From Treponemataceae bacterium (GTDB lineage Bacteria; Spirochaetota; Spirochaetia; Treponematales; Rectinemataceae): a DNA stretch of 64,000 nucleotides. Below the pieces are notes generated by a model that did no database searches, had not been told where the DNA came from, and was given only the letters and a program-made list of their open reading frames with translations. Location: NCBI GenBank assembly GCA_963678065.2, contig CAXXVZ010000005.1, positions 832,001 through 896,000 of the forward strand, in the 5' to 3' direction. Shown here piece by piece: positions 2,736 to 54,896 of the stretch. The position numbers and the translations under genes were made by a program. Each line of letters begins with the position of its first letter. Position 1 is the first letter of the stretch.

Positions 2736-3348
2736 GTTATGTGCTGTGTTTTTGGGGCACACCCTGTTTCTTCTCTTCATTTCTATAATTCTTATTCCTT
2801 TACTCTTAACCCTTTATCTTTGCATTTTAATACTTTATTCAGATACATACGCACTTTATTTCTCTATACCATAGTTATTTATTTACTTTGACAGTGCCTC
2901 TTTTCTTATATCCTACTACCTATATATTTTATCCTTAAATTCATATTTACGTTTTCGACTATTATAGTTCAGTACATGTTTTTCGATGTTTCCAATTCAA
3001 AAATCTACCATTTTTACTCATAAACCATATAGTAATAATGCCACTACTCAATATGTTTCTATACTTCAAAAATCACATTTTTTAGATTCAAATAGTTCAT
3101 GAGAAAAACAGCAGCATCTTCGAAAGGCGTTTTGAAATCTATGATAATCCTATACCCAGAAATCCTATTTTTTATCTATACCATTTTTGTACTGCATATA
3201 CTACCAACACTGAATATAGCACTGATCCACAATTACTACAGAATTGTGTATAAACCCAATATCAGAAGATTCTATTTTTGAATGCTCTGACGTCATTCAG
3301 AATCATATAGTTTCGCACGAGATCCGCCCCAAAAACATTGCACATAAC
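2736..3348. other. Long ORF-less cassette (family L)
   Basis: AT-rich, no credible ORF; homologous to 9517-10141 and 54266-54896. Confidence 0.75.
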
Positions 3349-3687: not shown

Positions 3688-4961
3688 GGCTCTTCGCTGT
3701 TTCATGTGGGTAACTGCCCCAGTTTACCGGCGACAATGTAGGTCATGATCTTGAGATTTTTGATAGTTCGGAATCCTCTGGCTCTGGTCTTTGCTGACTG
3801 AATCAGACTATTCAACGATTCAAGAAGCCCATTTGTCACTCCGGATGTAAGCCACCGAACGACTCCATTCCAGTGTCGTTTGAGCATCGCAGCAAAATTG
3901 ATGATTGGGGTAAGCTGTGATCGTGTTGCCCATACTCTCCATTTTTTAAGTTCTTCTATGGCTCGAGAAGCCGAGAATTCGAAAAGTCCCTTGAAAATGT
4001 TCATCATTCGCCATGCTCGCCCTGTTTTTAACTGTAATCCTGACAAGGTGTTGAGACGGGCCAAATTCTTAACCGACAGATTGTAGGGGTTGCTCAACCA
4101 GACATATTTCGAACCTCTGAGTACCGTTTCCATCGTTGATTCTTCTTTCCGCACGTCGTTGACTGCTTCACCCAGAAGCTTCATGACATGAAACCGATCA
4201 AACGTGAGAGCAGCCTGGGGAAGATGCTCTTCGATCCCGGACATGAACGCCGGCGACATATCGGTACAGACCGTCCGTGATAGCAGTTTTCGAGCCTCCA
4301 TGGGCTTCCAGATGCTCTGTAAAGGCTTTTATAGTGGATGCATCCTTGCCTTCGGTCACATATATGGCTTTCCCTGTATCGAGATCGGCCACAACGGTGA
4401 TGTATGAGTGTCCGCGTTTGGCTGCTGTTTCGTCGATTCCGATTCGTGTGGTTTTCGATAAATCTTGTGTAGCCACGTCTTCGGAAACATAATGGTCCAT
4501 AATTCGCCACACTCGCGTATCGGTGGTAGCTGTCAGTCTGGAAACTGCCTTGACGCTCATTTCCTTGACCATGATCATCATGAGGGCTTCGTACAGCAGG
4601 GTAAATCCCGATCCTTTACGCGCCCACGGGATATCAATCAGATGAACGCCATGCTCAGGACAGTCTATCCGCGGAACTCGTGCATGCAGATAGGCTTCAT
4701 GCTGGAAAAAATTGAGGTGACGCCATGTTTTGGGCATCGTATCGTAGGCTGTACCCTTGTAATCGCAGGAAAAACACGGAAAACGACTCCCGGGCTTGAA
4801 CCCAAGCTGTATATCAAGCCGATGTTCTGTTGGTTTGAACTCTATGTTCTCAACAATCCAGGGTTCAGATAATCCAAGCGCAAGGGCGAATAGTTCTACG
4901 TCTTTCATGCTGCTCATCCTACCATGCTTCCTTGGTTACCCACACGATTCGTTGAAGAGCC
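3688..4961 (-). mobile_element. ISL3-family IS
   Basis: GGCTCTTC ends; 8-bp target duplication tgaaaaag at 3680-3687 and 4962-4969. Confidence 0.92.
3702..4917 (-). pseudogene. ISL3 transposase, frameshifted
   Basis: WRHLNFFQHEAYLHARVPR, IGIDET, DMSPAF, FDRFHV, TNGLLESLNS motifs split over two frames; one extra C at ~4271. Confidence 0.85.
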
Positions 4962-5510
4962 TGAAAAAGAGATTGGCTTCCTTGCGCTCGATAGGAGTGT
5001 AGCCAATCTCATCAATGATCATGAGGTTGGCCTTCGCGAGCCGGCTTAGCCTGAACTGAGCGCTGCGTGCGGCGTCAGAGCGCACGAGGAGCTTCACCAG
5101 TGAGGTCATGCGCTCGTAACAAACCGAATAGCCTTTGCGTACGGCCACATGGCCAAGAGCGATTGCGAGATGGGTCTTTCCGAGTCCAGGAGGCCCGAAG
5201 AGCAGAAGGTTCTCGTGACGGTCTATCCAAGAGCACTCGGTGAGCTCAGAGAGGTCTCGTTTTCCAATTCCTGCTACTCGGCCGAGTTTGAAATCCTCGA
5301 GGCGCTTTACGACGGGAAAATGGGCCATGGCGAGGCCTCGTTTGAGGCGCCTGTCGCCGCGATCCTGTAGTTCGACGTCCACGAGGGTCTCGAGGAAGGC
5401 AAGGCATGTCAGTCCCCCGCTTTCAGCTTGTTTAAGAAGCTCAGGAAGCCGTGACGACGCGCCACGAAGCCGCAGGGACTCCAGTTTACGAGCGGATTCT
5501 GCGAGGGCGC

Positions 5511-7058
5511 TCATTCTTCGTGCCTCTGCGTATCGACGAGCGCGTCGAGGAATCGCTGATACTCGCTGACCGAGCGTGTGGCAACTAGTGGAAGGTCTCT
5601 GGTTTGATGAAGGCCGCGGTACGGCGAAGGCGCCACTGCGGGCACTGGCGTCGTGCTGTTGACCGCGTCGATGAGATCCTGGGCGCTTGCAAGTCCTCTA
5701 TCCAGGCAGAACTTCAATGCAAGCACGAGTTTCTCTCTGTCGATGTTGCGCTTGAGAAGCTTCCGAAGTCGGCCAGCGTGCTCCCGGAAGTAGCGTCGAT
5801 ACTCGGTATAGATACCATCGACGAAGCTCCCCCACTCGGGAAGATCATCTACTGCGGCGACAAGATCCGCGCGGAGCGTTTCCTGGGATCCTTCGCGATC
5901 GCGATAGTGAGCCTTGTCCAGCACCGTTCCGCCGGGTGTTGCCGCTTCGCGATGCGCCGCGATCTGGATACCCGTCTTCGTATCGAATACCAGGATGAGT
6001 CCGTCCTTGCGCTCGATAGTGACCTCGTTGAGCCGGTACGAGTTCGGCACCGAGTACCTGGTCGCGGCGATCGATATAAGGCTTTTCTGATCCACGTTAC
6101 GGCTCTCTCGGCAGCCCGATGCGGTGTCCGCGCGGAAAATAGACGCTCGGAGCGCCCGCAAGACGGGTTTCTCGTGCGCTTCGAAGTCCGCGAGCGGCAT
6201 GAGACGCGTGGCTTGGCTCAGTTTTGCGTTCACTCGTAAGAGCCATTTGCGCATGCCTGCCTGGAGTTCGTCGAAGGTCGCGAAGCTGCGGCTCGAGAAA
6301 TAGCTCGTTTTGACGTATTTGACCGCATTCTCGACCTTTCCTTTCGATTCCGGATCGGCCGCACGGCAGACACGGAGCCGCAGTCCCTGTTCTGCGACGA
6401 ACTCAGCAAAGGCTTTTGTCGTCGTGAGGTCGCCAAGGTTTTCCGTCACAATCATTGTCCGGTCCTGATCCATGACGAGTTCTTCGGTGATACCGCCAAA
6501 AAACTCGAAGGCGTCCAGGAGATGGCCGATCACATCCTCGCTGGTAAAGGGCCTGGATTGGGCCGCTACGTAGCGGTAACGGCTTCGTGAGAGTACTACG
6601 ACAACAAACCAAGCCTTTCCGATGTTCGTCGTCTCTACGCCGAAATCAATCTGAGCCTGCTTGCCGTAGGCCAGAGGCTCCACAGGACGATATTCCCGAC
6701 ACAGGCCCACCTTAATCGCACCGGATGCCTTGAGATACGTCAGGTAGTTCCGCAACGTACGGTCCGAGCCTGGAAGCTCTCCGTATTTCTCGCTTAAGTA
6801 GTCGTGGACGGACGATGAGTAGACCATTCTGCCTTCGTGGTTCTTTTTAAAAATCTCGAGGATTTCGTCCTTGTAGACCGAAAAAGCCTTACCGCGTTCT
6901 GCCATTCGCTCGAGATACCGTAAGAATTGGTCATTGTCCATGCGCAGGTACTTTCTCACGGTCTTGCGGTCCTTGCCAAGTTTTACCGCTAGTGCGCTGA
7001 CTGTGAGTCCTTGCCTGTGCCCTGTTCGTACGATGTTGTAGTCCTTCATGGTACTCAT
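5511..7058 (-). CDS. istA: IS21 transposase IstA
   Basis: HTH N-terminus, QAQIDFG, PESKGKVENAVKYVK, RYSVP motifs; overlaps istB start. Confidence 0.92.
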   Translation of the reverse strand: MSTMKDYNIVRTGHRQGLTVSALAVKLGKDRKTVRKYLRMDNDQFLRYLERMAERGKAFSVYKDEILEIFKKNHEGRMVYSSSVHDYLSEKYGELPGSDRTLRNYLTYLKASGAIKVGLCREYRPVEPLAYGKQAQIDFGVETTNIGKAWFVVVVLSRSRYRYVAAQSRPFTSEDVIGHLLDAFEFFGGITEELVMDQDRTMIVTENLGDLTTTKAFAEFVAEQGLRLRVCRAADPESKGKVENAVKYVKTSYFSSRSFATFDELQAGMRKWLLRVNAKLSQATRLMPLADFEAHEKPVLRALRASIFRADTASGCRESRNVDQKSLISIAATRYSVPNSYRLNEVTIERKDGLILVFDTKTGIQIAAHREAATPGGTVLDKAHYRDREGSQETLRADLVAAVDDLPEWGSFVDGIYTEYRRYFREHAGRLRKLLKRNIDREKLVLALKFCLDRGLASAQDLIDAVNSTTPVPAVAPSPYRGLHQTRDLPLVATRSVSEYQRFLDALVDTQRHEE

Positions 7059-9072: not shown

Positions 9073-9117
9073 ACTGATTTCCCACTAAACGAGTGTGTGG
9101 TGTGCCTGAACAATTTC

Positions 9118-9258
9118 ACCTAACGTATGCCTGCCTGCGACGTTTTGGCCCGCATCGGCGGGACAAAATGTGCTTGAGCGGAACGAGCGAATGCGAGTGA
9201 AGTGAAAGCCGAAGAAGGAGCCGAAGGCGACTGATGAGCGGGGGCAGCGCTGTTATGT
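9118..9258 (-). repeat. attC site, variant D
   Basis: Same frame as other attCs; internal ttttggcc cgcatcggcg ggacaaaa stem. Confidence 0.85.
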
Positions 9259-9389
9259 GCTGTCGCGATCTTGGTTTAGCGCACTGAAAGGTGGTGGCTG
9301 GATGCCACCACTTTTCAAGAAATATCCTGTGCGCGTTCTTTCTTTATCTTCTCTTCACTTTAGATACATTCCTCGCGATTGCACATAAC
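9252..9389. other. ORF-less mini-cassette type II, copy 1
   Basis: 138 bp, nested inverted repeats, near-identical copy at 49425-49562. Confidence 0.8.
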
Positions 9390-9516
9390 GTTCGCCTGCC
9401 TACGACGTTGTGGCGAGCATCGGCGAGCCGCAATGTGCCTGAATGAAACGAGCGAATGCGAGTGAAATGAAGGCCGAAGAAGGAGCCACAGGCGACTGAT
9501 GAGCGTGGGCAGTGCT

Positions 9517-10141
9517 GTTATGTGCTGTGTTTTTGGGGCACACCCTGTGTCTTTTCTTCATTTCTATTATTCTTATTCCTTTACTCCTTACCCTTTTTCT
9601 TTGCAGTTTATTACTTTATTCAGATTCATACATGTTTTATTCCTCTATACCATAGCTAGTTTTATTTTTGGCAGTATCTCTTTTCTTATATCCTAATACC
9701 TGTTTACTTCCCCCCTTACTTTATCTATGTTTTTTTACTATCATTTTTTAACACACTTTTTAATAGATAGTTCCAATTCCAGAATCCACTGTTTTTACTC
9801 ATAAAAAATACAGTACATATTCCCACTACTCAATATTTTCTATACTTCAAAAATCACTTTTTGGGATTCACCTATTTCATGGCACATATCTCATGAGAAA
9901 AATTGCAGCACCTTAGAAAGATGTTTTGAACTTTATGATAATCCATATTCAAAAATCGTATTTTTTATTTATACCATTTTTGTATTGCACATACCAATAA
10001 CACTGAATATAGCACTGATCCACAATTACTACAGGATTGTTCATAAACCCAGTATCAGGAGATCCTATTTTTGAATACTCTGACGTCATTCAGAATCATA
10101 CAGTTCAGTAAGAGATCCGCCCCAAAAACATTGCACATAAC
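9517..10141. other. Long ORF-less cassette (family L)
   Basis: Same ends and colinear homology with 2736-3348. Confidence 0.75.
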
Positions 10142-12736: not shown

Positions 12737-13087
12737 AATAATTCCTTAAAAGAACAATACTGTATCACACAATCAAATAGTGCAAAACATATGTAAATTC
12801 ACCATCCAAAGTCTCAAGCCGACACTACATTTGATACAGTTTGAAAATATTGATATCGGCATATCGGATCTCGGGGGGCAAACTTTCAGCTAACGTTTCC
12901 GGCCTGCGACGTTTGCGACCGCATCGGCGGGCGCAAATGTGCCTGAACGGAATGAGCGACTGCGAGTGGAGTGAAGGCCGAAGAAGGAGCCGCAGGCGAC
13001 TGATGAGCGTGGGCCGTGTTGTTAGGTGACGTTTTAGAGGCGAATTTAGAGAAGGCGCGCCGTCGGCCGGAGGTCCGGCGCGCTAAA

Positions 13088-17395: not shown

Positions 17396-18790
17396 GAGGC
17401 TTTTTCAAAACTTCGTAATCCGCTTTGTAAAAAAGCGAGTTATTGTAACTGAAGCTTCGTTTTTGCACAGTAAAAATTACATGTGCAGTAAAAAGGGCTC
17501 TCTTTTCAGTGCAAAAGATGGACTACCCCTACAAAATCCGGTTCTGCCGGATTGCCCGGTTACGATTTCTGCAGTTCGGGAAGGATGAAGTACTGCAAAG
17601 CCTTGACGGCCGCCAGAACCACTACCCCGCACATGAGCAGGAATGATACTTTCTCAAATCCCCGTACAAATATCTGACCCGGTATGAGCCAATCCTTCAA
17701 ATGCGAGTTTGCACGTTCAACCGTTGTCCTGATTGTGTACCGCTCCTTCTGTGACGGCGAAAATGGTTCCCGTTCCGTCCCACGACGCGTATTCCGATCA
17801 ATCAGCGGAACACGCCCACGTCCCTGGATATAGGTCGCGATGGGATCCGCATCGTATGCAGCGTCCATGACTGAATACAGATGTCGGACCTTTTTCTCTG
17901 TTATCTTTTCCAGAGGAATCGCTACTTGCGAATCATGAACATTGGCGCCGGTTACGACTGCTGAAATAGGGAATCCTGTGTCGCTGACATCAAGGTGCAA
18001 CTTGTATCCTTTCCATGTTTCCCTATTCCCCTGGCTGTTCTTCTTGCATCCCCATGCACAGTCTTTGGATAGTTCTGACAAGGATTTCCTGACGCTTTGG
18101 CCGACTTGCTTTTCTATCTGTGTCGGCTCCTTCACAGGCCGAACTTCTCCTTTTCGGGGACGACCTCGTTTCCGTTGCGGTGTCACGGAAGAAACAGCTT
18201 CACGTTTGGCAGGTACAGGTTTTTCTCGTGCTCGTATCTCCGTCGCATCCCGATTTATGTGTCCGACGATATGGCCGTCATGACAATCCTTCACCATGGT
18301 ATTCAAAGTCTGAATCAGCGGAGTCTTTTTTGAAAACTCCGCGTAGCGACGCGAAAAGGTCGCAGAGCTTGGAACGGAGGTGAAGCCGCATATCCTCCGC
18401 AGATTCGGATCGTTGATCAGCCTGTTCCTAAGGTCCGTGACTGTCGCTATGTGGAATACCGTTCGGGCGAAAAACGCCCGCATGATCGGTTCGTTCCGAT
18501 GTGGAGGACGGCCAGTCCGTGCACATGGTGATGTAATCCGTGGCTGAGCATCTTCAATGACTCTGAGCAGGGCGATAAAAAAGCGATGCTCGTCGGTGAG
18601 ATATTCTTCGAAACATCGCTGGATATCGTAGGAAATCGGCAAAAGTATTTGCGCTCCGCCCAGTATTTCTGGTATGGTTTTCATCAGCGGGGGCTCCTCC
18701 TGGTGACGTTTGTGTTGCAACATCATCATACAGGTTCTGTCCCCGCTTTTCATTAAAATTCGTTCATCTCATGACTTTTGAAAGAGCCTC
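17396..18790 (-). mobile_element. IS with DDE transposase (IS5/IS1182-like)
   Basis: IRs gaggctttttcaaaa / ttttgaaagagcctc; TAA duplicated at 17393-17395 and 18791-18793. Confidence 0.85.
17560..18684 (-). CDS. DDE transposase
   Basis: INRDATEI, GYKLHL, ANVHDSQ, MDAAYD, RTTVERANSHLK; GGAGGAG RBS before MKTIPE. Confidence 0.9.
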   Translation of the reverse strand: MKTIPEILGGAQILLPISYDIQRCFEEYLTDEHRFFIALLRVIEDAQPRITSPCARTGRPPHRNEPIMRAFFARTVFHIATVTDLRNRLINDPNLRRICGFTSVPSSATFSRRYAEFSKKTPLIQTLNTMVKDCHDGHIVGHINRDATEIRAREKPVPAKREAVSSVTPQRKRGRPRKGEVRPVKEPTQIEKQVGQSVRKSLSELSKDCAWGCKKNSQGNRETWKGYKLHLDVSDTGFPISAVVTGANVHDSQVAIPLEKITEKKVRHLYSVMDAAYDADPIATYIQGRGRVPLIDRNTRRGTEREPFSPSQKERYTIRTTVERANSHLKDWLIPGQIFVRGFEKVSFLLMCGVVVLAAVKALQYFILPELQKS

Positions 18791-29622: not shown

Positions 29623-30763
29623 GTGTTCCGTCTTTTACAGATTGCCTAATAGCCCTTGGCAGTTGCAATGCTCGAAGAAATTTGTTCAGCAGATTTTACC
29701 CATTTGAATTTACGACCTGATGTATTCCAGCCTTTGATGAAATCGTCTATCGCCTTTTCAAGTTCATCAACACTGGTCCAACTATCGCGCCGAATTCGCT
29801 TAGTGGTGATTTCTCCAAACCAGCGTTCAACAAGATTCAGCCATGAAGAATGTGTCGGTATGAAGTGCTCAACAAATCGACCATTCATCGAATCCAGATA
29901 TTTCCTGACCTCTTGAGTTTTATGTGCAGAATAATTATCCGCAACGATATGAAGCGTCTTTCCCTTAGGGCTCTTGCGATTGACCATCTTCAAGAAAGAA
30001 ATATAGTCAGCTGCCTTGTGTTGTTCCTTGCAGTCGCCGATTACTTTCCCGCTCACGACATTTAATGCTGCAAAAAGCGTTGTTGTACCATGGCGATAGT
30101 AGTCGTGAGATTGACGTTCAGGAACACCGGGAAGCAACGGTAGAATCGGCTGCGATCGCTCTACGGCTTGAATCTGTGATTTCTCGTCCACACAAAGAAC
30201 TATCGAGTTCTCGGGAGGATTGAGATACAAGCCGACGACATCTTCCAGCTTCTTTTCAAAATCAGGATCGGTGCTGAATTGAAAATGCTTCACCAGATGG
30301 GGCTTTAGTCCTCGTTCGCGAAGAATGGTATTCACCGAGGAATGCCCTATGCCAAGTTTTTTTGCCAACTCTCTCGTACTCCAATGCGTTCCCTGTTCAG
30401 GTTTTTCATTGCAGACAAGCGTACAAAGCTCATTCTTTACTTCGATTGGAATTGGCTGTTTCCCTGGTTTTCTTGTTTTGTCAGTGAGTAAGGACTTTAA
30501 TCCGCCCTCATTGTACCGGTGGACATACCGGCTCACCGTGACATTATTAATCCCAAGAAACGCTGCTGTGTCGTTCGTTGATCGGTTATGGGCTCTGCTT
30601 AGGACGGTTTGAAGACGTACAGCATATTTGTGCTGAATATCCCCGATAGCTAAAATCTTTTCCATAAGGATAACGTCTTCTTTGGTCGTGTTCGGTTTTA
30701 CTTCTTTCGCCATGTGGTAAGTATAGCATACTTTTATTAGGTTGTCTGTATTGGACAGTACAC
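29623..30763 (-). mobile_element. IS630-family IS
   Basis: TA duplication within CTAG; IRs gtgttccgtc / gacagtacac. Confidence 0.85.
29646..30713 (-). CDS. IS630 transposase
   Basis: VLCVDEKSQIQA, HDYYRHGTTTLFAAL, ADNYSAHK, SWLNLVERWF. Confidence 0.92.
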   Translation of the reverse strand: MAKEVKPNTTKEDVILMEKILAIGDIQHKYAVRLQTVLSRAHNRSTNDTAAFLGINNVTVSRYVHRYNEGGLKSLLTDKTRKPGKQPIPIEVKNELCTLVCNEKPEQGTHWSTRELAKKLGIGHSSVNTILRERGLKPHLVKHFQFSTDPDFEKKLEDVVGLYLNPPENSIVLCVDEKSQIQAVERSQPILPLLPGVPERQSHDYYRHGTTTLFAALNVVSGKVIGDCKEQHKAADYISFLKMVNRKSPKGKTLHIVADNYSAHKTQEVRKYLDSMNGRFVEHFIPTHSSWLNLVERWFGEITTKRIRRDSWTSVDELEKAIDDFIKGWNTSGRKFKWVKSAEQISSSIATAKGY

Positions 30764-31244
30764 TAGTAGCATTACTATCACTTTTTCTATGTTTATGGTT
30801 GTATTTGAGTATTCTTTTAGTAGAATAGCCATTATGCAGATTGTCCAAGAGTGCTCAGCATCATTTTCAAATCGAGAAGAATCAAAGAGTTTTGATTTTC
30901 TAATTATGCTTTTGACCTTATCTACTTCGAATATGAAATTGAGTTGTGTTTCAAATCTATTTCTGTCCATATATTCCCCAAATCACAAATATCCTATCTA
31001 TTTTTTATTTTCTACATATGCGCGAGCCCGACGGCCGGAGGCCCGGGCGAGCTCTACTACAAACAGATGCAGGGAATCCATATTTCGCCTAACGTTCGCC
31101 TGCCTACGACGTTGTGGCGAGCATCGGCGAGCCACAATGTGCCTGAGCGGAATGAGCGACAGCGAGTGGAGCGATGGCCGAAGAAGGAGCCGAAGGCGAC
31201 TGATGAGCGCGGGCAGTGCTGTTAGCTGATGTGTCTGCGCGATC

Positions 31245-42301: not shown

Positions 42302-42885
42302 GTTAGTTGCTGTGTTTGGGGGGCTCTTTTTCTTCCATTTTTTAAAACGTTTTCTCTTCTCTTACCCTGAGATCTTCATTCTCATAACTCTATAACCGAT
42401 ACTTTCAGAGCATTTATTTTATAGAGTTCTGAATCTTCAACTGTATAAATTGATTTTCCCTCTTTTTCTTTAAAATTCTCAAAACCTTTTTTTTAAATCT
42501 TCTACCATATTCCATAAATATTTTACCTGAAAACAAATATGCCTGATTCCTGTTTCAGAATCTTCATTTTTAAAGATCCCATTTTTTTAATTTTTGAGTT
42601 TGTAACTCGATTATACAATCATTGAGTTGTAGCCAGGTATTATTCGCTCTTCCATGAAATCCTGTAGTCTCATGAAGAATCTTAAATCCCAACATCTCAT
42701 ATTACTATGATATATTTTCATTATATCTATCAGTTTCTATGCAGACAGATAAAATGACTCAATCATTGAAGTTTCTCGAAAAATATCTTTTCTCTTGATC
42801 CCATATTCCCATGAGATATTTATAGCAAACAAAAATGATCTCACTCAGGATGCAAAATTTCCGCCCCCCAAATATTGCAACTAAC
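42302..42885. other. Long ORF-less cassette
   Basis: No credible ORF; ends related to family L. Confidence 0.65.
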
Positions 42886-48503: not shown

Positions 48504-49039
48504 GTTATCTGCTTTGTTTTTGGGGCTCATCCATTTTCTTCTCTTCATTTAAAAACTTTTCTTTCTTACTTCTTCAATCTTGCCCTTATATCCTATATTT
48601 ATATACTTTATACAGATATCGAATATTTTAATTATCTATATTATAGTTATTTAGTAGTTTTTCTCATCAAATATTTTATTATTATATTTTAAGTCCATGA
48701 TTTTATGTAACAAGTATATATTACAGTATTAGCCAATACTATAAATTTCAATATTTATAATTTTCACCCAACAAAAAGATCAGCTTTGAAAGGTCCTTGT
48801 CTTCTCCTGGAATCCCATATTCAAGAATCCCATATTCAAGAATCCCATATTCAAGAATCCCATATTCAAGATTTTTAACTTCATGATCCCTAACATTTCA
48901 GAAACTATATATTTTCCCAAGAGATTAATACTGTATTAACAAAATATCTGGAATCTATGATTCTAGTTTTTAACAATTTGTCGTCATTCAGAATAACAAG
49001 GTTCAACAAAAGATCCGCCCCAAAAATATTGCAGATAAC
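48504..49039. other. Long ORF-less cassette (divergent family L)
   Basis: Right end gtcattcagaat..agatccgccccaaaaa shared with family L. Confidence 0.65.
48810..48869. repeat. 15-bp tandem repeat x4
   Basis: (GAATCCCATATTCAA)4, perfect. Confidence 0.95.
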
Positions 49040-49424
49040 GTTTCCGGCCTGCGACGTTTTGTCCCGCATCGGCGGGACAAAATGTGCCTGAATGAAACGA
49101 GCGCATGCGAGTGCAATGAAGGCCGAAGAAGGAGCCACAGGCGACTGATGAGCGTGGGCAGTGCTGTTAGTTGCAGTCGTGACCTTCAAGCGCGCTTGGA
49201 TGGGGAGACTTGTCTCTCCATCCAATACTCTATCTTGCGCGCGTTCTTCTCTTCCTCTTTTCTTACCCTTATTTTTTCTTTCACGATTGCAACTAACGTA
49301 TGCCTGCCTACGACGTTTTGGCCCGCATCGGCGGGACAAAATGTGCTTGAGCGAAACGAGCGAATGCGAGTGAAGTGAAAGCCGAAGAAGGAGCCGAAGG
49401 CGACTGATGAGCGTGGGCAGCGCT

Positions 49425-49562
49425 GTTATATGCTGTCGCGATCTTGGTTTAGCGCACTGAAAGATGGTGGCTGGATGCCACCATTTTTCAAGGAACATCC
49501 TGTGCGCGTTCTTTCTTTATCTCCTCTTCACTTTAGATACATTCCTCGCGATTGCATATAAC
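49425..49562. other. ORF-less mini-cassette type II, copy 2
   Basis: Homolog of 9252-9389 with compensatory changes. Confidence 0.8.
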
Positions 49563-50373
49563 GTTCTGCCTGTTTGCGACGATGGCGCGAGCATCGGCGA
49601 GCGCCATTGTGCCTGAGCGGAATGAGCAAAGCGAGTGCAGCGATGGCCGAAGAGGGAGCCTGCGACCGATGAGCGTGAACAGCGCTGTTAGTTGCAGTCG
49701 TGACCTTCGAGCGCGCTTGGATGGGGAGACTTGTCTCCCCATCCAATACTATATCTTGCGCGCGTTCTTCTCTTCCTCTTCTCTTACCCTTATTTTTTCT
49801 TTCACGATTGCAACTAACGTATGCCTGCCTACGACGTTGTGGCGAGCATCGGCGAGCCACAATGTGCCTGAGCGGAATGAGCGCATGCGAGTGGAGTGAA
49901 GGCCGAAGAAGGAGCCGAAGGCGACTGATGAGCGTGGGCAGTGCTGTTAGGCGTAGTTATTTCCATCTTCATTCATTTATTCTACCCTATTCAATTCTCT
50001 TTTATCACGATTTTGAAATATTCTATCAGTGACAATACATCAGGTACAGAGAATACTGCCTTCTCTATTCTATTGTTCCTCGGATCTATTTCATATCCGT
50101 GGGCTTTATAAAATGATGCTTTTCGTAGATCTGCATTATGAAAAAGCGTTGTTCGGAAAAAGCTTCCTGTAAAGTCGGATTCAACAAGATAAGTATTCTG
50201 AAACGCACAATCTACTAGTTCACAGTGTACGAATTTACTTTTTTTCATTGATACATCAGTAAAGTTACAGGCAACTATCCTACATTCATCGAAATCCATA
50301 TCAAATGTTGTTTGATCACAATAGTAATAGTTTATACCTAATACTTTACTTTTAACAAACCTTACCCCTATAA

Positions 50374-52100
50374 CCTGGATTCCCGGGAATTTATACCCAC
50401 AATTCAATAAAGCATTGTAATTACAGTAAATAATTGGTGACAGCAATCTAAATGGGGTATAATATATACCCCATGGAGGATTGTATGCCACAAGGAACAC
50501 AAGTCATCCATGGTGTTGAATATGTTTACGAATATGATTCAAAGCGAATCGCTGAAAAGAACTACAACACGCACAAAAGACACTACATCGGGAAAATGGT
50601 AGATGGTATCTTTGTTCCCACTAAAAACTACCAACTTCAGCAAGCACTCGAGCGGGCAACGTCAATTTCTCCTGGCCCTGTTTCTTCGGTGCTTCATACC
50701 CGAAACTTTTTCGGAGCAACCTATCTGTTTGATGCAATCGGAGAAAAGCTGGGGATAACTGGTGATCTCTGTGTTTGTTTTCCTGATCTCTGGAAACAGA
50801 TACTCTCTATTGCATACTTTTTGATTCTGGAAGACAGGAACTCCATAAGCCGTTTCCCGCGATGGGCTGTACATCATGCGCACCCCTATGGGAACTCGAT
50901 ACCCTCCCAAAGGTCCAGCGAGTTATTCGCCTGTATTGATGAGGACGCCAGGCGACGGTTTTTTCTCAAGCAGGCAAATCGAAGACTCGAGACTGAATAT
51001 CTTGCCTACGATATCACTTCTATTTCTTCGTATTCTCGACTGCTTTCCCAGGTTCGCTATGGCAGGAATAAGGATCATGATCCTTTACCCCAAATCAATT
51101 TGGCGATGCTCTACGGTGATACTTCAAGACTACCGGTTTATTATCGTACATTGCCCGGTAACATCGCCGATGTCACGACGATTCGTACGCTCCTTACTGA
51201 CATTGATCTTCTCAAGCTGGGCAAAGTCAAGTTGGTTTTGGATCGAGGGTTCTACAGCGAAGAGAATATCAACACCCTGTACCATCATCACTATAAGTTC
51301 CTGATAGCAGTTCCAAAGCACTTACGGTTGATTCAGGATGTCCTTGATGATGTTCGAATGTCTATGCGCACGAGAGCCTGTTACTCAAGCCGGTACAGGA
51401 TCAATACATACTCACGGACTATCGAATGGTCATACCATCATCGAAAACCTCGTTCAGGGGATCTGGATGAAGGATCAAGGAGGCTGTATCTCCATCTGTT
51501 CTTCAATGACCAACGGGCAGTGGATGATAAGGCTGCGTTCAATACCCTTTTAGACACGCTTGAAACGGAACTGTATTCCGGAAAACTTGATCCTGAACAT
51601 GAAAAGCTCTATCGGAAATATTTCGAGTACGCTGCAACGCCTGTTCGCGGCATGCAGGTAACACCAATTCAATCTTCAATCGACGAAGCTGAAAAAAACT
51701 ACGGCTATTTTGCTCTCATATCGAATGACATAAAGGATCCTTTGGAAGCGCTTAGAATTTATCGATCTAAGGATCTGATTGAAAAGGCTTTCGGAAATCT
51801 CAAAGAGCGGCTTAACCTGCGCAGAACATCGGTGTCTTCAGAAGAAAACCTCGAGGGCAAGCTCTTTGTCCAATTCATCGCGCTTATGTATCTCTCATAC
51901 ATCGATAAGATGATGGATGAACAGAATCTATATAAGGACTATACGTTACACGAACTTCTTGATGAACTCGATGTGATTGAATGTTTTGGCCATCCTGGTC
52001 GTAGACTTCAAATCGGTGAAATCACTAAGAAACAAACTGAGCTATTTACGAAGTTAGACGTTCCCGTTCCTCTTGGGGTATAAATTCATGGGAATTCAGG
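50374..52100 (+). mobile_element. IS1634-family IS
   Basis: IRs cctggattcccgggaatttataccc / gggtataaattcatgggaattcagg; 6-bp duplication ctataa. Confidence 0.9.
50485..52083 (+). CDS. IS1634 transposase
   Basis: AYDITSISSYS, LPQINL, PGNIADV, LDRGFYS, IEKAFGNLKERL; GGAGG RBS. Confidence 0.9.
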   Translation: MPQGTQVIHGVEYVYEYDSKRIAEKNYNTHKRHYIGKMVDGIFVPTKNYQLQQALERATSISPGPVSSVLHTRNFFGATYLFDAIGEKLGITGDLCVCFPDLWKQILSIAYFLILEDRNSISRFPRWAVHHAHPYGNSIPSQRSSELFACIDEDARRRFFLKQANRRLETEYLAYDITSISSYSRLLSQVRYGRNKDHDPLPQINLAMLYGDTSRLPVYYRTLPGNIADVTTIRTLLTDIDLLKLGKVKLVLDRGFYSEENINTLYHHHYKFLIAVPKHLRLIQDVLDDVRMSMRTRACYSSRYRINTYSRTIEWSYHHRKPRSGDLDEGSRRLYLHLFFNDQRAVDDKAAFNTLLDTLETELYSGKLDPEHEKLYRKYFEYAATPVRGMQVTPIQSSIDEAEKNYGYFALISNDIKDPLEALRIYRSKDLIEKAFGNLKERLNLRRTSVSSEENLEGKLFVQFIALMYLSYIDKMMDEQNLYKDYTLHELLDELDVIECFGHPGRRLQIGEITKKQTELFTKLDVPVPLGV

Positions 52101-54265: not shown

Positions 54266-54896
54266 GTTATGTGCTGTGTTTTTGGGGCACACCCTGTGTC
54301 TTCTCTTCATTTCTATAATTCTTATTCCTTGGTTCTTTACTCTTAACCCTTTGTCTTTGCTTTTCAATACTTTATTCTAATACATAAGTATTTTATTTCT
54401 CTATACCATAGCTATTTATATACTTTGACCTTGCCTCTTTTATCGTATCCTGTTACCTATATATTTTATCCCTAACTTTATATTTATGGTTCGACTATTA
54501 TAGTTCAGTACACGTTTTTCGATGTTTCCAATTCAAAAATCTATCATTTTTACTCATAAACCATATAGTACATAATACCACTCAATATTTTTCTCTACTT
54601 CAAAATCACTTTTTTTGGATTCACCTATTTCATGGGACATATCTTATGAGAAAAATAGCAGCACCTTCGAAAAGCGTTTTGAACTCTATGATTATCCCAT
54701 ACTCAAGAATAGTATCTTTTATCTATACCATTTTTTGTACTGCACATACCAACAACACTGAATATGGCACTGATCCACAATTACTACAGGATTGTTCATA
54801 AACCCAATATCAAGAGATTCTATTTTTAAATACTATGATGTCATTCAGAATCATACAGTTCAGTAAGAGATCCGCCCCAAAAACATTGCACATAAC
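54266..54896. other. Long ORF-less cassette (family L)
   Basis: Homologous to 2736-3348 and 9517-10141. Confidence 0.75.

Follow-up and report, generated by a model that had tools for sequence, protein, structure and literature searches.

Why large integron arrays accumulate repeated non-coding cassettes is a question dating from 2006, when selfish elements, promoters or RNAs were proposed for the paralogous non-coding cassettes of the Vibrio superintegron (Boucher et al. 2006, PMC1382264). Promoter activity was later reported for many gene-less cassettes (10.1101/2023.11.21.568050, PMC6557892). The window analysed here, a stretch of 64,000 nucleotides from a Treponemataceae bacterium (C5:832001-896000, where C5 is a contig of genome G000), raises the same question and lies inside a single run of attC-like repeats (C5:754692-931448). 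A first-pass annotation of the window had described two copies of a second type of mini-cassette, type II, at 9252-9389 and 49425-49562, and both are present there. The mini-cassette family comprises 56 gene-less copies among the 173 cassettes of the array (52 of type I, 3 of type II and 1 of type III), or about a third of all cassettes, and each unit consists of an attC-like site and a 128-138-nt body. Thirty of the 52 type I copies are in the window; their bodies vary from 128 to 135 nt in length, so that any reading frame is broken. The mini-cassettes are complete, ORF-free and placed between two attC sites, and they are repeated in the array and restricted to this lineage, as is expected of gene-less cassettes. 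The type II cassette reads on the minus strand and its own attC therefore lies to the left of its body on the plus strand. One attC variant precedes all three type II copies, and its first 9 bases are also found in 4 gene cassettes. The features are as follows.

9121-9255, plus strand: attC-like site of type II copy 1, with TAAC...GTTA borders
9252-9389, plus strand: gene-less body of type II copy 1, 138 nt, as parsed, with no ORF of at least 70 aa overlapping it
9252-9268, plus strand: left arm of the cassette-end stem (9 bp, T.T, G.T, 6 bp), pairing with 9373-9389
9279-9284, plus strand: 5' arm of the inner stem, GCGCAC, pairing with 9329-9334
9285-9317, plus strand: 14-bp hairpin stacked on the inner stem, with arms 9285-9298 and 9304-9317 and loop TGGAT at 9299-9303
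9318-9328, plus strand: 11-nt bulge with the end ATCYT (same length in type I, 13 nt in type III)
9329-9334, plus strand: 3' arm of the inner stem, GTGCGC, pairing with 9279-9284
9335-9372, plus strand: pyrimidine-rich, mostly unpaired tract (purine-rich on the coding strand)
9373-9389, plus strand: right arm of the cassette-end stem, with terminal TAAC
9386-9520, plus strand: next attC-like site, belonging to the adjoining 625-nt gene-less cassette
49166-49297, plus strand: body of the adjoining type I cassette to the left of type II copy 2
49294-49428, plus strand: attC-like site of type II copy 2
49425-49562, plus strand: body of type II copy 2
49687-49818, plus strand: body of the adjoining type I cassette to the right of type II copy 2
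C5:816638-816775, outside the window: body of type II copy 3
C5:804589-804726, outside the window: type III body, single copy
C5:931898-933073, minus strand (the cassette strand), outside the window at the array end: integrase, a tyrosine recombinase

The 173 cassette bodies were parsed over 177 kb. Every body is bordered by GTTA...TAAC on the plus strand, with two irregular junctions; 117 of the 173 are at least 450 nt long, and some of these include more than a single cassette or carry insertion sequences; the other 56 are under 140 nt. Among 60 ORFs scanned, the cargo genes lie mainly on the minus strand and form the usual repertoire of cassette arrays (toxin-antitoxin pairs, acetyltransferases, HNH, TIR and Schlafen proteins). 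As in a canonical integron, the cassettes are co-oriented and are separated by attC sites with AAC/GTT cores. The array terminates in TAAC with no attC past it, the attI-like place being judged by position only, and the integrase stop codon is 326 bp past the last cassette; the same arrangement, the integrase being encoded on the strand of the cassettes, is reported for Treponema integrons (PMC3607928). The N-terminal domain of the integrase is HARP-like (24.8 bits against a cut-off of 25). When the protein was compared with VchIntIA (2a3v), the query jumped from residue 283 to 290 where the VchIntIA chain spans 172 to 225. By this alignment the integrase lacks about 45 residues at the I2 region of VchIntIA, and in this respect it departs from a canonical integron integrase (the role of the I2 region is treated in PMC4792948); its score against TIGR02249, 197 bits, is below the cut-off of 265. 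Since I2 is absent, the single-strand recombination pathway is an assumption for this system. Relatives of the integrase are found, among the matches listed, in Bacteroidota, Bacillota and archaea. Our literature search, whose scope excluded most subscription papers and supplements, found no paper on a HARP-bearing, I2-less cassette integrase.

Several other features of the array were recorded. Two direct repeats of ~20 nt just past the last cassette (L238:1660-1720, about C5:931598-931658) sit like the accessory integrase sites of attI1. Insertion sequences of ISL3, IstA/IstB and DDE type break the array at 3705-7058, 17563-18753, 29649-30848 and 50452-52083 of the window, and one insertion sequence sits inside an attC at ~3430. 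A cassette at 869-1805 carries MarR and GNAT genes on the plus strand, opposite to most cargo, and one array cassette contains a group II intron reverse transcriptase (C5:773261-776315, L214). Nine larger A+T-rich cassettes of 507-724 nt have no ORF at the 70-aa cut-off; those in the window are at 2736-3348, 9517-10141, 48504-49039, 54266-54896 and 42302-42885, and together they form repeated families with similar ends and are candidate promoter cassettes. Seven gene cassettes (window bodies starting at 13021, 29113 and 63658, and C5:799406, 900274, 926149 and 930247) have a G+C-rich hairpin motif in the 5' leader, to which a short motif close to the 3' end is partly complementary; this suggests a second, nested long-range stem.

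From compensatory changes between the two type II copies in the window, one in the terminal stem and one in the hairpin, the first-pass annotation had argued that the cassettes probably encode a structured nucleic acid. The terminal stem cannot serve that argument, being common to nearly all cassettes of the array. Across the whole array (C5:754807-931571), almost every cassette has self-pairing ends of ~22 positions. Among 89 distinct end pairs from long bodies, positions 1-9 are paired in 86-89 and positions 12-19 in 77-88, the letters of the latter being cassette-specific, whereas position 11 is G.T in 78, T.T in 11 and Watson-Crick in none. The stem reaches at least 18 positions in 85 of these 89 pairs, against 17 in the mini-cassettes. 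The same rule is seen in arrays of other genera and families, and beside related recombinases at distant loci it was found, among the matches listed, in 39 candidate cassettes (34 of 159 loci), 31 of the 39 having an A.C or G.T state. The terminal stem and most of the strand bias thus belong to the recombination site, and because the stem is generic, the first of the two compensations and the invariant G.T are uninformative about the mini-cassettes specifically. The tract is partly generic as well. On the minus strand its purine content is 78% in type II and 90% in types I and III, compared with averages of 56% in the first 40 inner bases and 71% in the last 40 of the gene cassettes; the mini-cassettes exceed the gene cassettes at the 5' side. 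Short segments with self-pairing ends and G.T at position 11 were also seen in eight viral contigs (L201, L202, L204, L205, L206, L208, L211 and L213); the segments in phage-like contigs are flanked by attC-like repeats and read like small-gene pieces.

The inner fold is a different matter. Type II copies 1 and 2 differ at 7 of 138 bases (95% identity). Four of the differing bases make up the two double compensatory changes that had been described, G-C at 9257/9384 versus A-T at 49430/49557 and G-C at 9291/9311 versus A-T at 49464/49484, and the other three are in the bulge and tract; copy 3 (C5:816638) has both A-T states. The chance of four changes among 72 paired positions landing as two pairs is 6e-4, before complementarity is required. 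On the plus strand the folds of the copies lie well beyond those of shuffled sequences (z of -9.3 and -6.9 with RNA parameters, -9.1 and -7.5 with DNA parameters), and both strands are far past their shuffles. Of 84 distinct long bodies (98.6 kb in total), only 5 have hairpins of at least 13 bp, and these hairpins are A+T-rich. The order of elements in type II is the same as in type I, as had been described. The hairpins of the two types had also been called unrelated in sequence, which is wrong, as the 14-bp arms of types I, II and III can be aligned without a gap. All three types have a 6-bp GCGCRC stem, a stacked 14-bp hairpin and an 11-13-nt bulge ending in ATCYT, and in all of them the hairpin apex reads G-R-C-T-[GGA]-T-G-Y-C, the GGA being absent in type I. 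Between types, identity is 58-69% in the core and 36-57% in the arms, and core alignments score 36-49 against 5-7 for shuffles (0 of 1000), scores that are inflated because the cores were cut at matching ends. Judging from these alignments, types I, II and III likely descend from one ancestor rather than being convergent builds.

Comparison of the three types shows changes on both sides in 11 of 20 pairs, 10 of them among the 14 pairs of the hairpin and 1 among the 6 of the inner stem. The alignment behind these counts contains 7 of the 56 sequences (2 of type II, 1 of type III and 4 of type I), which represent three lineages in one genome. Of its hairpin cells, 99% are still paired, compared with 28-49% in slid controls, and 0 of 500 shuffles match, a count that is not to be read as a probability. 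Within type I (52 copies), 4 of 72 paired columns are variable as against 15 of 60 unpaired columns (Fisher p 0.002), the variation in unpaired columns being inflated by slippage in the homopolymer tract. Fifteen of the type I hairpins are perfect, three haplotypes in 26, 9 and 1 copies have G.T on the plus strand and one copy has A.C. A conserved fold within a lineage-restricted, gene-less cassette family is real. The first-pass claim that selection acts on the fold is partly supported: the inner fold has been kept across three types, on stronger evidence than the two copies in the window could give, but one of the two cited compensations lies in the generic end stem. No paper on a covarying fold inside gene-less cassettes came up in the literature search, with most subscription papers and supplements outside its scope.

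Two-sided changes can also arise by template switching between inverted arms, which perfects short inverted repeats in bacteria and is reported to produce such changes without selection (PMC5941160). The hairpin would then be a self-correcting relic that spread by means of its attC. In keeping with this, types II and III are unamplified, type I has a private attC, and the covariation comes from three lineages in one genome. However, the 14-bp arms, the stacking of the 6-bp stem, the apex and ATCYT have stayed constant while the arms diverged to 36-57% identity, and an uncorrected G.T persists in 36 of 52 type I hairpins. The 6-bp stem, whose arms are 39-46 nt apart, has also changed on both sides once. 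We consider template switching a distinctly unlikely source of the changes.

Which strand carries the fold bears on what kind of molecule it is. At the one attC site that was folded, the energy is -28.3 kcal/mol (z -2.75) on the plus strand and -19.7 (z -0.51) on the minus strand, the better fold being on the strand opposite to the cargo genes. The type I-specific attC arm is to the left of the type I body at 48 of 48 sites. Together with the cargo genes on the minus strand, this identifies the plus strand as the integron bottom strand. In a study of 263 mobile-integron sites, G:T pairs were reported to favour the attC bottom strand, which is recombined as folded single-stranded DNA (PMC5027507). 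The first-pass annotation had G.T pairs favouring the plus strand, antisense to cargo; the preference is small in perfect copies, and the invariant G.T is generic. In perfect copies of types I and II the inner fold prefers the plus strand by 0.4-1.3 kcal/mol as DNA, and in type III the preference is slightly reversed. Among the 37 imperfect type I hairpins, 36 keep G.T on the plus strand and one has A.C, and the mismatches of the private type I attC on the plus strand are 14 T.G versus 2 C.A. Counted as independent states, the G.T bias of the inner fold comes down to five, split 4 to 1 (p 0.19), and the occasional mismatches in the end stems of gene cassettes are unbiased (7 G.T versus 5 A.C). 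With so few independent states and unbiased gene-cassette stems, the strand argument is suggestive only. GC skew gave no indication of which strand is lagging at the array. Given that plus is the bottom strand of the attC, folded DNA is favoured by the evidence no less than an encoded RNA.

The reading that we favour, with a probability of roughly 0.45, is that the inner fold of the mini-cassettes acts as single-stranded DNA on the strand used by the recombinase, and that the cassettes spread by copy-and-paste as passengers or parasites of the integrase. Folded single-stranded DNA in a self-copying cassette is the likelier possibility compared with an RNA, because the favoured strand is the integron bottom strand. 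In the RNA interpretation the body would be a small structured RNA, either from the minus-strand array transcript or as a plus-strand antisense, functioning in trans or as a signal for processing or stability. The fold is equally strong in RNA terms, its fixed helix lengths and conserved bulge motif resemble a recognised shape, and covariation is reported to be unable to separate RNA from single-stranded DNA (PMC5737381). Xanthomonas has a cassette-borne sRNA, sRNA-Xcc1, according to 10.1101/2025.06.18.660453, and a metatranscriptome contig (X21, 172 nt, depth 8) contains the attC of type I together with 52 bases from the start of the body, although it may be DNA carried into the library. On the other hand, the units have no Rfam match (none in the window at gathering score; one chance match, E 0.94, in attC), a sigma-70-like promoter is absent from both strands of the scanned units, and the strand that transcription of the array would read has an A.C mismatch in mid-hairpin in 36 of 52 type I copies. 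We regard an RNA as unlikely.

We also weighed an element working in cis, in double-stranded DNA or in the array transcript, such as an internal promoter, an operator for a dimeric protein, or a terminator or pause site that would divide the array into separately expressed parts. Gene-less cassettes are often promoters in Vibrio and Treponema according to the reports on both (10.1101/2023.11.21.568050, PMC6557892); an inverted repeat could bind a dimer, and a U-rich run follows the inner stem on the plus strand. In contrast, scans of 9100-9530 and 49020-49960 on either strand found 0 promoter-like sites (sigma-70 type only) and 0 terminator-like sites. The type II units thus have neither a match to a known Rfam family nor a plain intrinsic terminator, either of which would have argued against the structural claim. 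The letters of the arms vary while their pairing stays, which is the opposite of operator behaviour, and the neighbours of the mini-cassettes are diverse, with 30 kinds on one side and 31 on the other. A cis-acting role is quite improbable on this evidence. In its minus-strand layout of paired ends, purine-rich 5' part and long hairpin, the unit resembles the a1-msr-msd-a2 order of retron RNAs, and a reverse transcriptase could then copy bottom-strand DNA from the body, the copied DNA being the plus strand. Such a template is highly improbable, as the paired ends are generic to the array and the would-be msr is nearly all purine and unstructured in folds. Moreover, five of the six reverse transcriptases of the genome were scanned and matched the group II intron family best (four above cut-off), far under the retron cut-offs, and the sixth has four stops inside its match.

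Other candidates were discarded. The hairpin arms do not mimic attI direct repeats, the longest shared words of 7-8 nt being at chance level. Three further motifs, namely a GGA loop of CsrA type, a decoy for a GGATG restriction site and a pseudoknot between loop and bulge, were set aside, GGA being absent from the loop of type I. PhotoRC motifs were considered as integron-linked, which they are not according to PMC2864571.

If the mini-cassettes are folded single-stranded DNA, their spread could be pictured as follows. The plus (bottom) strand would be excised as a circle of about 256-265 nt, in which the end stem would form the outer half of the recombination site. The inner helix may lock the only G+C-rich part of the body and so keep the body from invading the recombination site; alternatively, it may present a bulged helix beside a single-stranded tract to a protein. 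Re-insertion at the attI-like end while the original stays would raise the copy number, and type I would owe its success mainly to its private attC and a cleanly folding circle, with types II and III as low-copy relatives. Copy-and-paste duplication arising from semi-conservative excision is reported for class 1 integrons (PMC8024014), and shorter cassettes are reported to be excised somewhat better, a modest effect seen only with certain sites (PMC5371416). The arrangement of the copies was examined across the array. Type I copies (52 of 173 cassettes) are scattered, and one of them is the first cassette next to the integrase. Two mini-cassettes stand side by side in 19 places, where 17.8 would be expected; type I units that are adjacent are no more alike (12.6 differing letters) than those that are not (12.5), and 40 of 50 full units are distinct. 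These neighbour counts, the diversity of the units and neighbours (30 kinds on one side and 31 on the other, as above) and the type I copy in first position fit repeated separate insertion and not tandem duplication.

The predicted excised circle was folded with DNA parameters in a model that takes no account of G.A pairs or of bound protein. In two copies of type I the end stem formed with a probability of 0.99, compared with averages of 0.62-0.68 when the inner body was shuffled, and 1 of 25 shuffles equalled the real copy in each case. For type III the probability was also 0.99, with a shuffle average of 0.93. The type II copies gave 0.02, 0.15 and 0.13, with 23, 15 and 8 of 25 shuffles equal or better, and in copy 1 the tract and end arms paired with the attC interior instead. 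In this model the type II circle misfolds, and type III folds cleanly but is single-copy; the inner fold is thus not enough for amplification, and outside type I a benefit from it is not evident. Misfolding of the circle, as modelled, could help explain the rarity of type II.

A covariance model (R1) was built from the seven sequences of types I, II and III, a search that had been proposed with the structural claim. In the genome it found exactly the 56 copies, all in the array and all on the plus strand. Among 150 relatives, many of them with fragmented genomes, it found none; the filters were stricter in that search, and 22 candidates were scored in each genome. The model gave two weak matches in 100 fetched loci, both without the hairpin. 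BLAST of the type II unit against 100 relatives matched attC parts only. A pattern for the end stem had 2 matches in 400 order-level genomes and 13 in viral contigs, none with the inner fold, and a pattern for the core had 5 matches in 400 phylum-level genomes and 1 in viral contigs, all with 6-9 of 14 arm pairs. No mini-cassette matched in plasmids, and those in phages were chance matches. All these negative results apply to the sequences that were searched. Contigs from three other sequencing runs (X6, X9 and X15) cover the type I body with few changes and may come from strains of the same species. None of the runs listed for the type II stretch was an RNA run, and type II and III bodies had no cover in four sequencing runs each, observations that have no bearing on their expression or absence.

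A different gene-less cassette of 298-299 nt is present in arrays of the same kind in genus g10 (L011:5996-6294; L012:16383-16680 and 17596-17894; L232; L234). It is whole in genomes G070 (1 copy) and G082 (2 copies) and is cut by contig ends in G082 and G028; it is repeated in G082 and stands first in the array of G028. It folds as a long rod; across three sequences, 6 of its pairs have changed on both sides, and 2 of these belong to the end stem. The rod is not homologous to the mini-cassettes, and folded gene-less cassettes thus recur in this system. A word of 10-13 nt in the central stem of the rod recurs in the spacer that separates the integrase from the attI-like site, and this could mark a decoy of a protein-binding site; a shared 12-mer was found in 2.75% of 400 random pieces.

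A bolder claim, which we consider somewhat unlikely, is that the mini-cassettes carry as their cargo not a gene but a shaped nucleic acid, a 20-bp bulged helix with a single-stranded tract that would be read by a protein on the excised circle or as RNA. The HARP-bearing integrase or a priming factor, for example, might read the bulged helix. If so, these would be the first integron cassettes with a fold as their selected function, and together with the unrelated 299-nt rods they would make up a class of structured elements that recurs with I2-less integrons as their parasites or regulators. The question of 2006 becomes testable here, since one fold exists in variants at 52, 3 and 1 copies, with a private attC that can be swapped and with natural two-sided changes in the helices as controls for breaking and restoring them. 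The recombinase is also without the domain thought to read single-stranded sites, and the same assay would show whether folded DNA is used.

Among known elements the mini-cassettes most resemble the repeated non-coding cassettes of Vibrio arrays, whose defining features they have. Like them, the Vibrio cassettes are gene-less, lineage-restricted and highly repeated, one family having 45 copies in V. vulnificus CMCP6 (PMC1382264). They differ in that the accessible part of that report mentions neither a fold nor covariation and never uses the term 'secondary structure', whereas three diverged types keep one fold here, and the present unit is ~260 nt long and accompanied by an integrase without I2. 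The promoter cassettes reported for Vibrionaceae and oral Treponema are gene-less too (10.1101/2023.11.21.568050, PMC6557892), but the mini-cassettes have no sigma-70-like promoter and conserve pairing rather than sequence. The cassette that encodes sRNA-Xcc1 likewise has a non-coding cargo read opposite to the array direction (10.1101/2025.06.18.660453); that cargo is a demonstrated RNA beside a symE gene, while the mini-cassettes are gene-free and known from DNA. With integron attC sites, as described in PMC5027507, the inner fold would share the character of folded single-stranded DNA whose bottom strand is favoured by G:T, the attC sites having in addition an AAC/GTT core. In contrast to an attC site, the fold described here is in the cassette body and has no AAC/GTT core of its own, and the cassette ends pair over 17 positions (~22 in gene cassettes) compared with the 7 of the R box.
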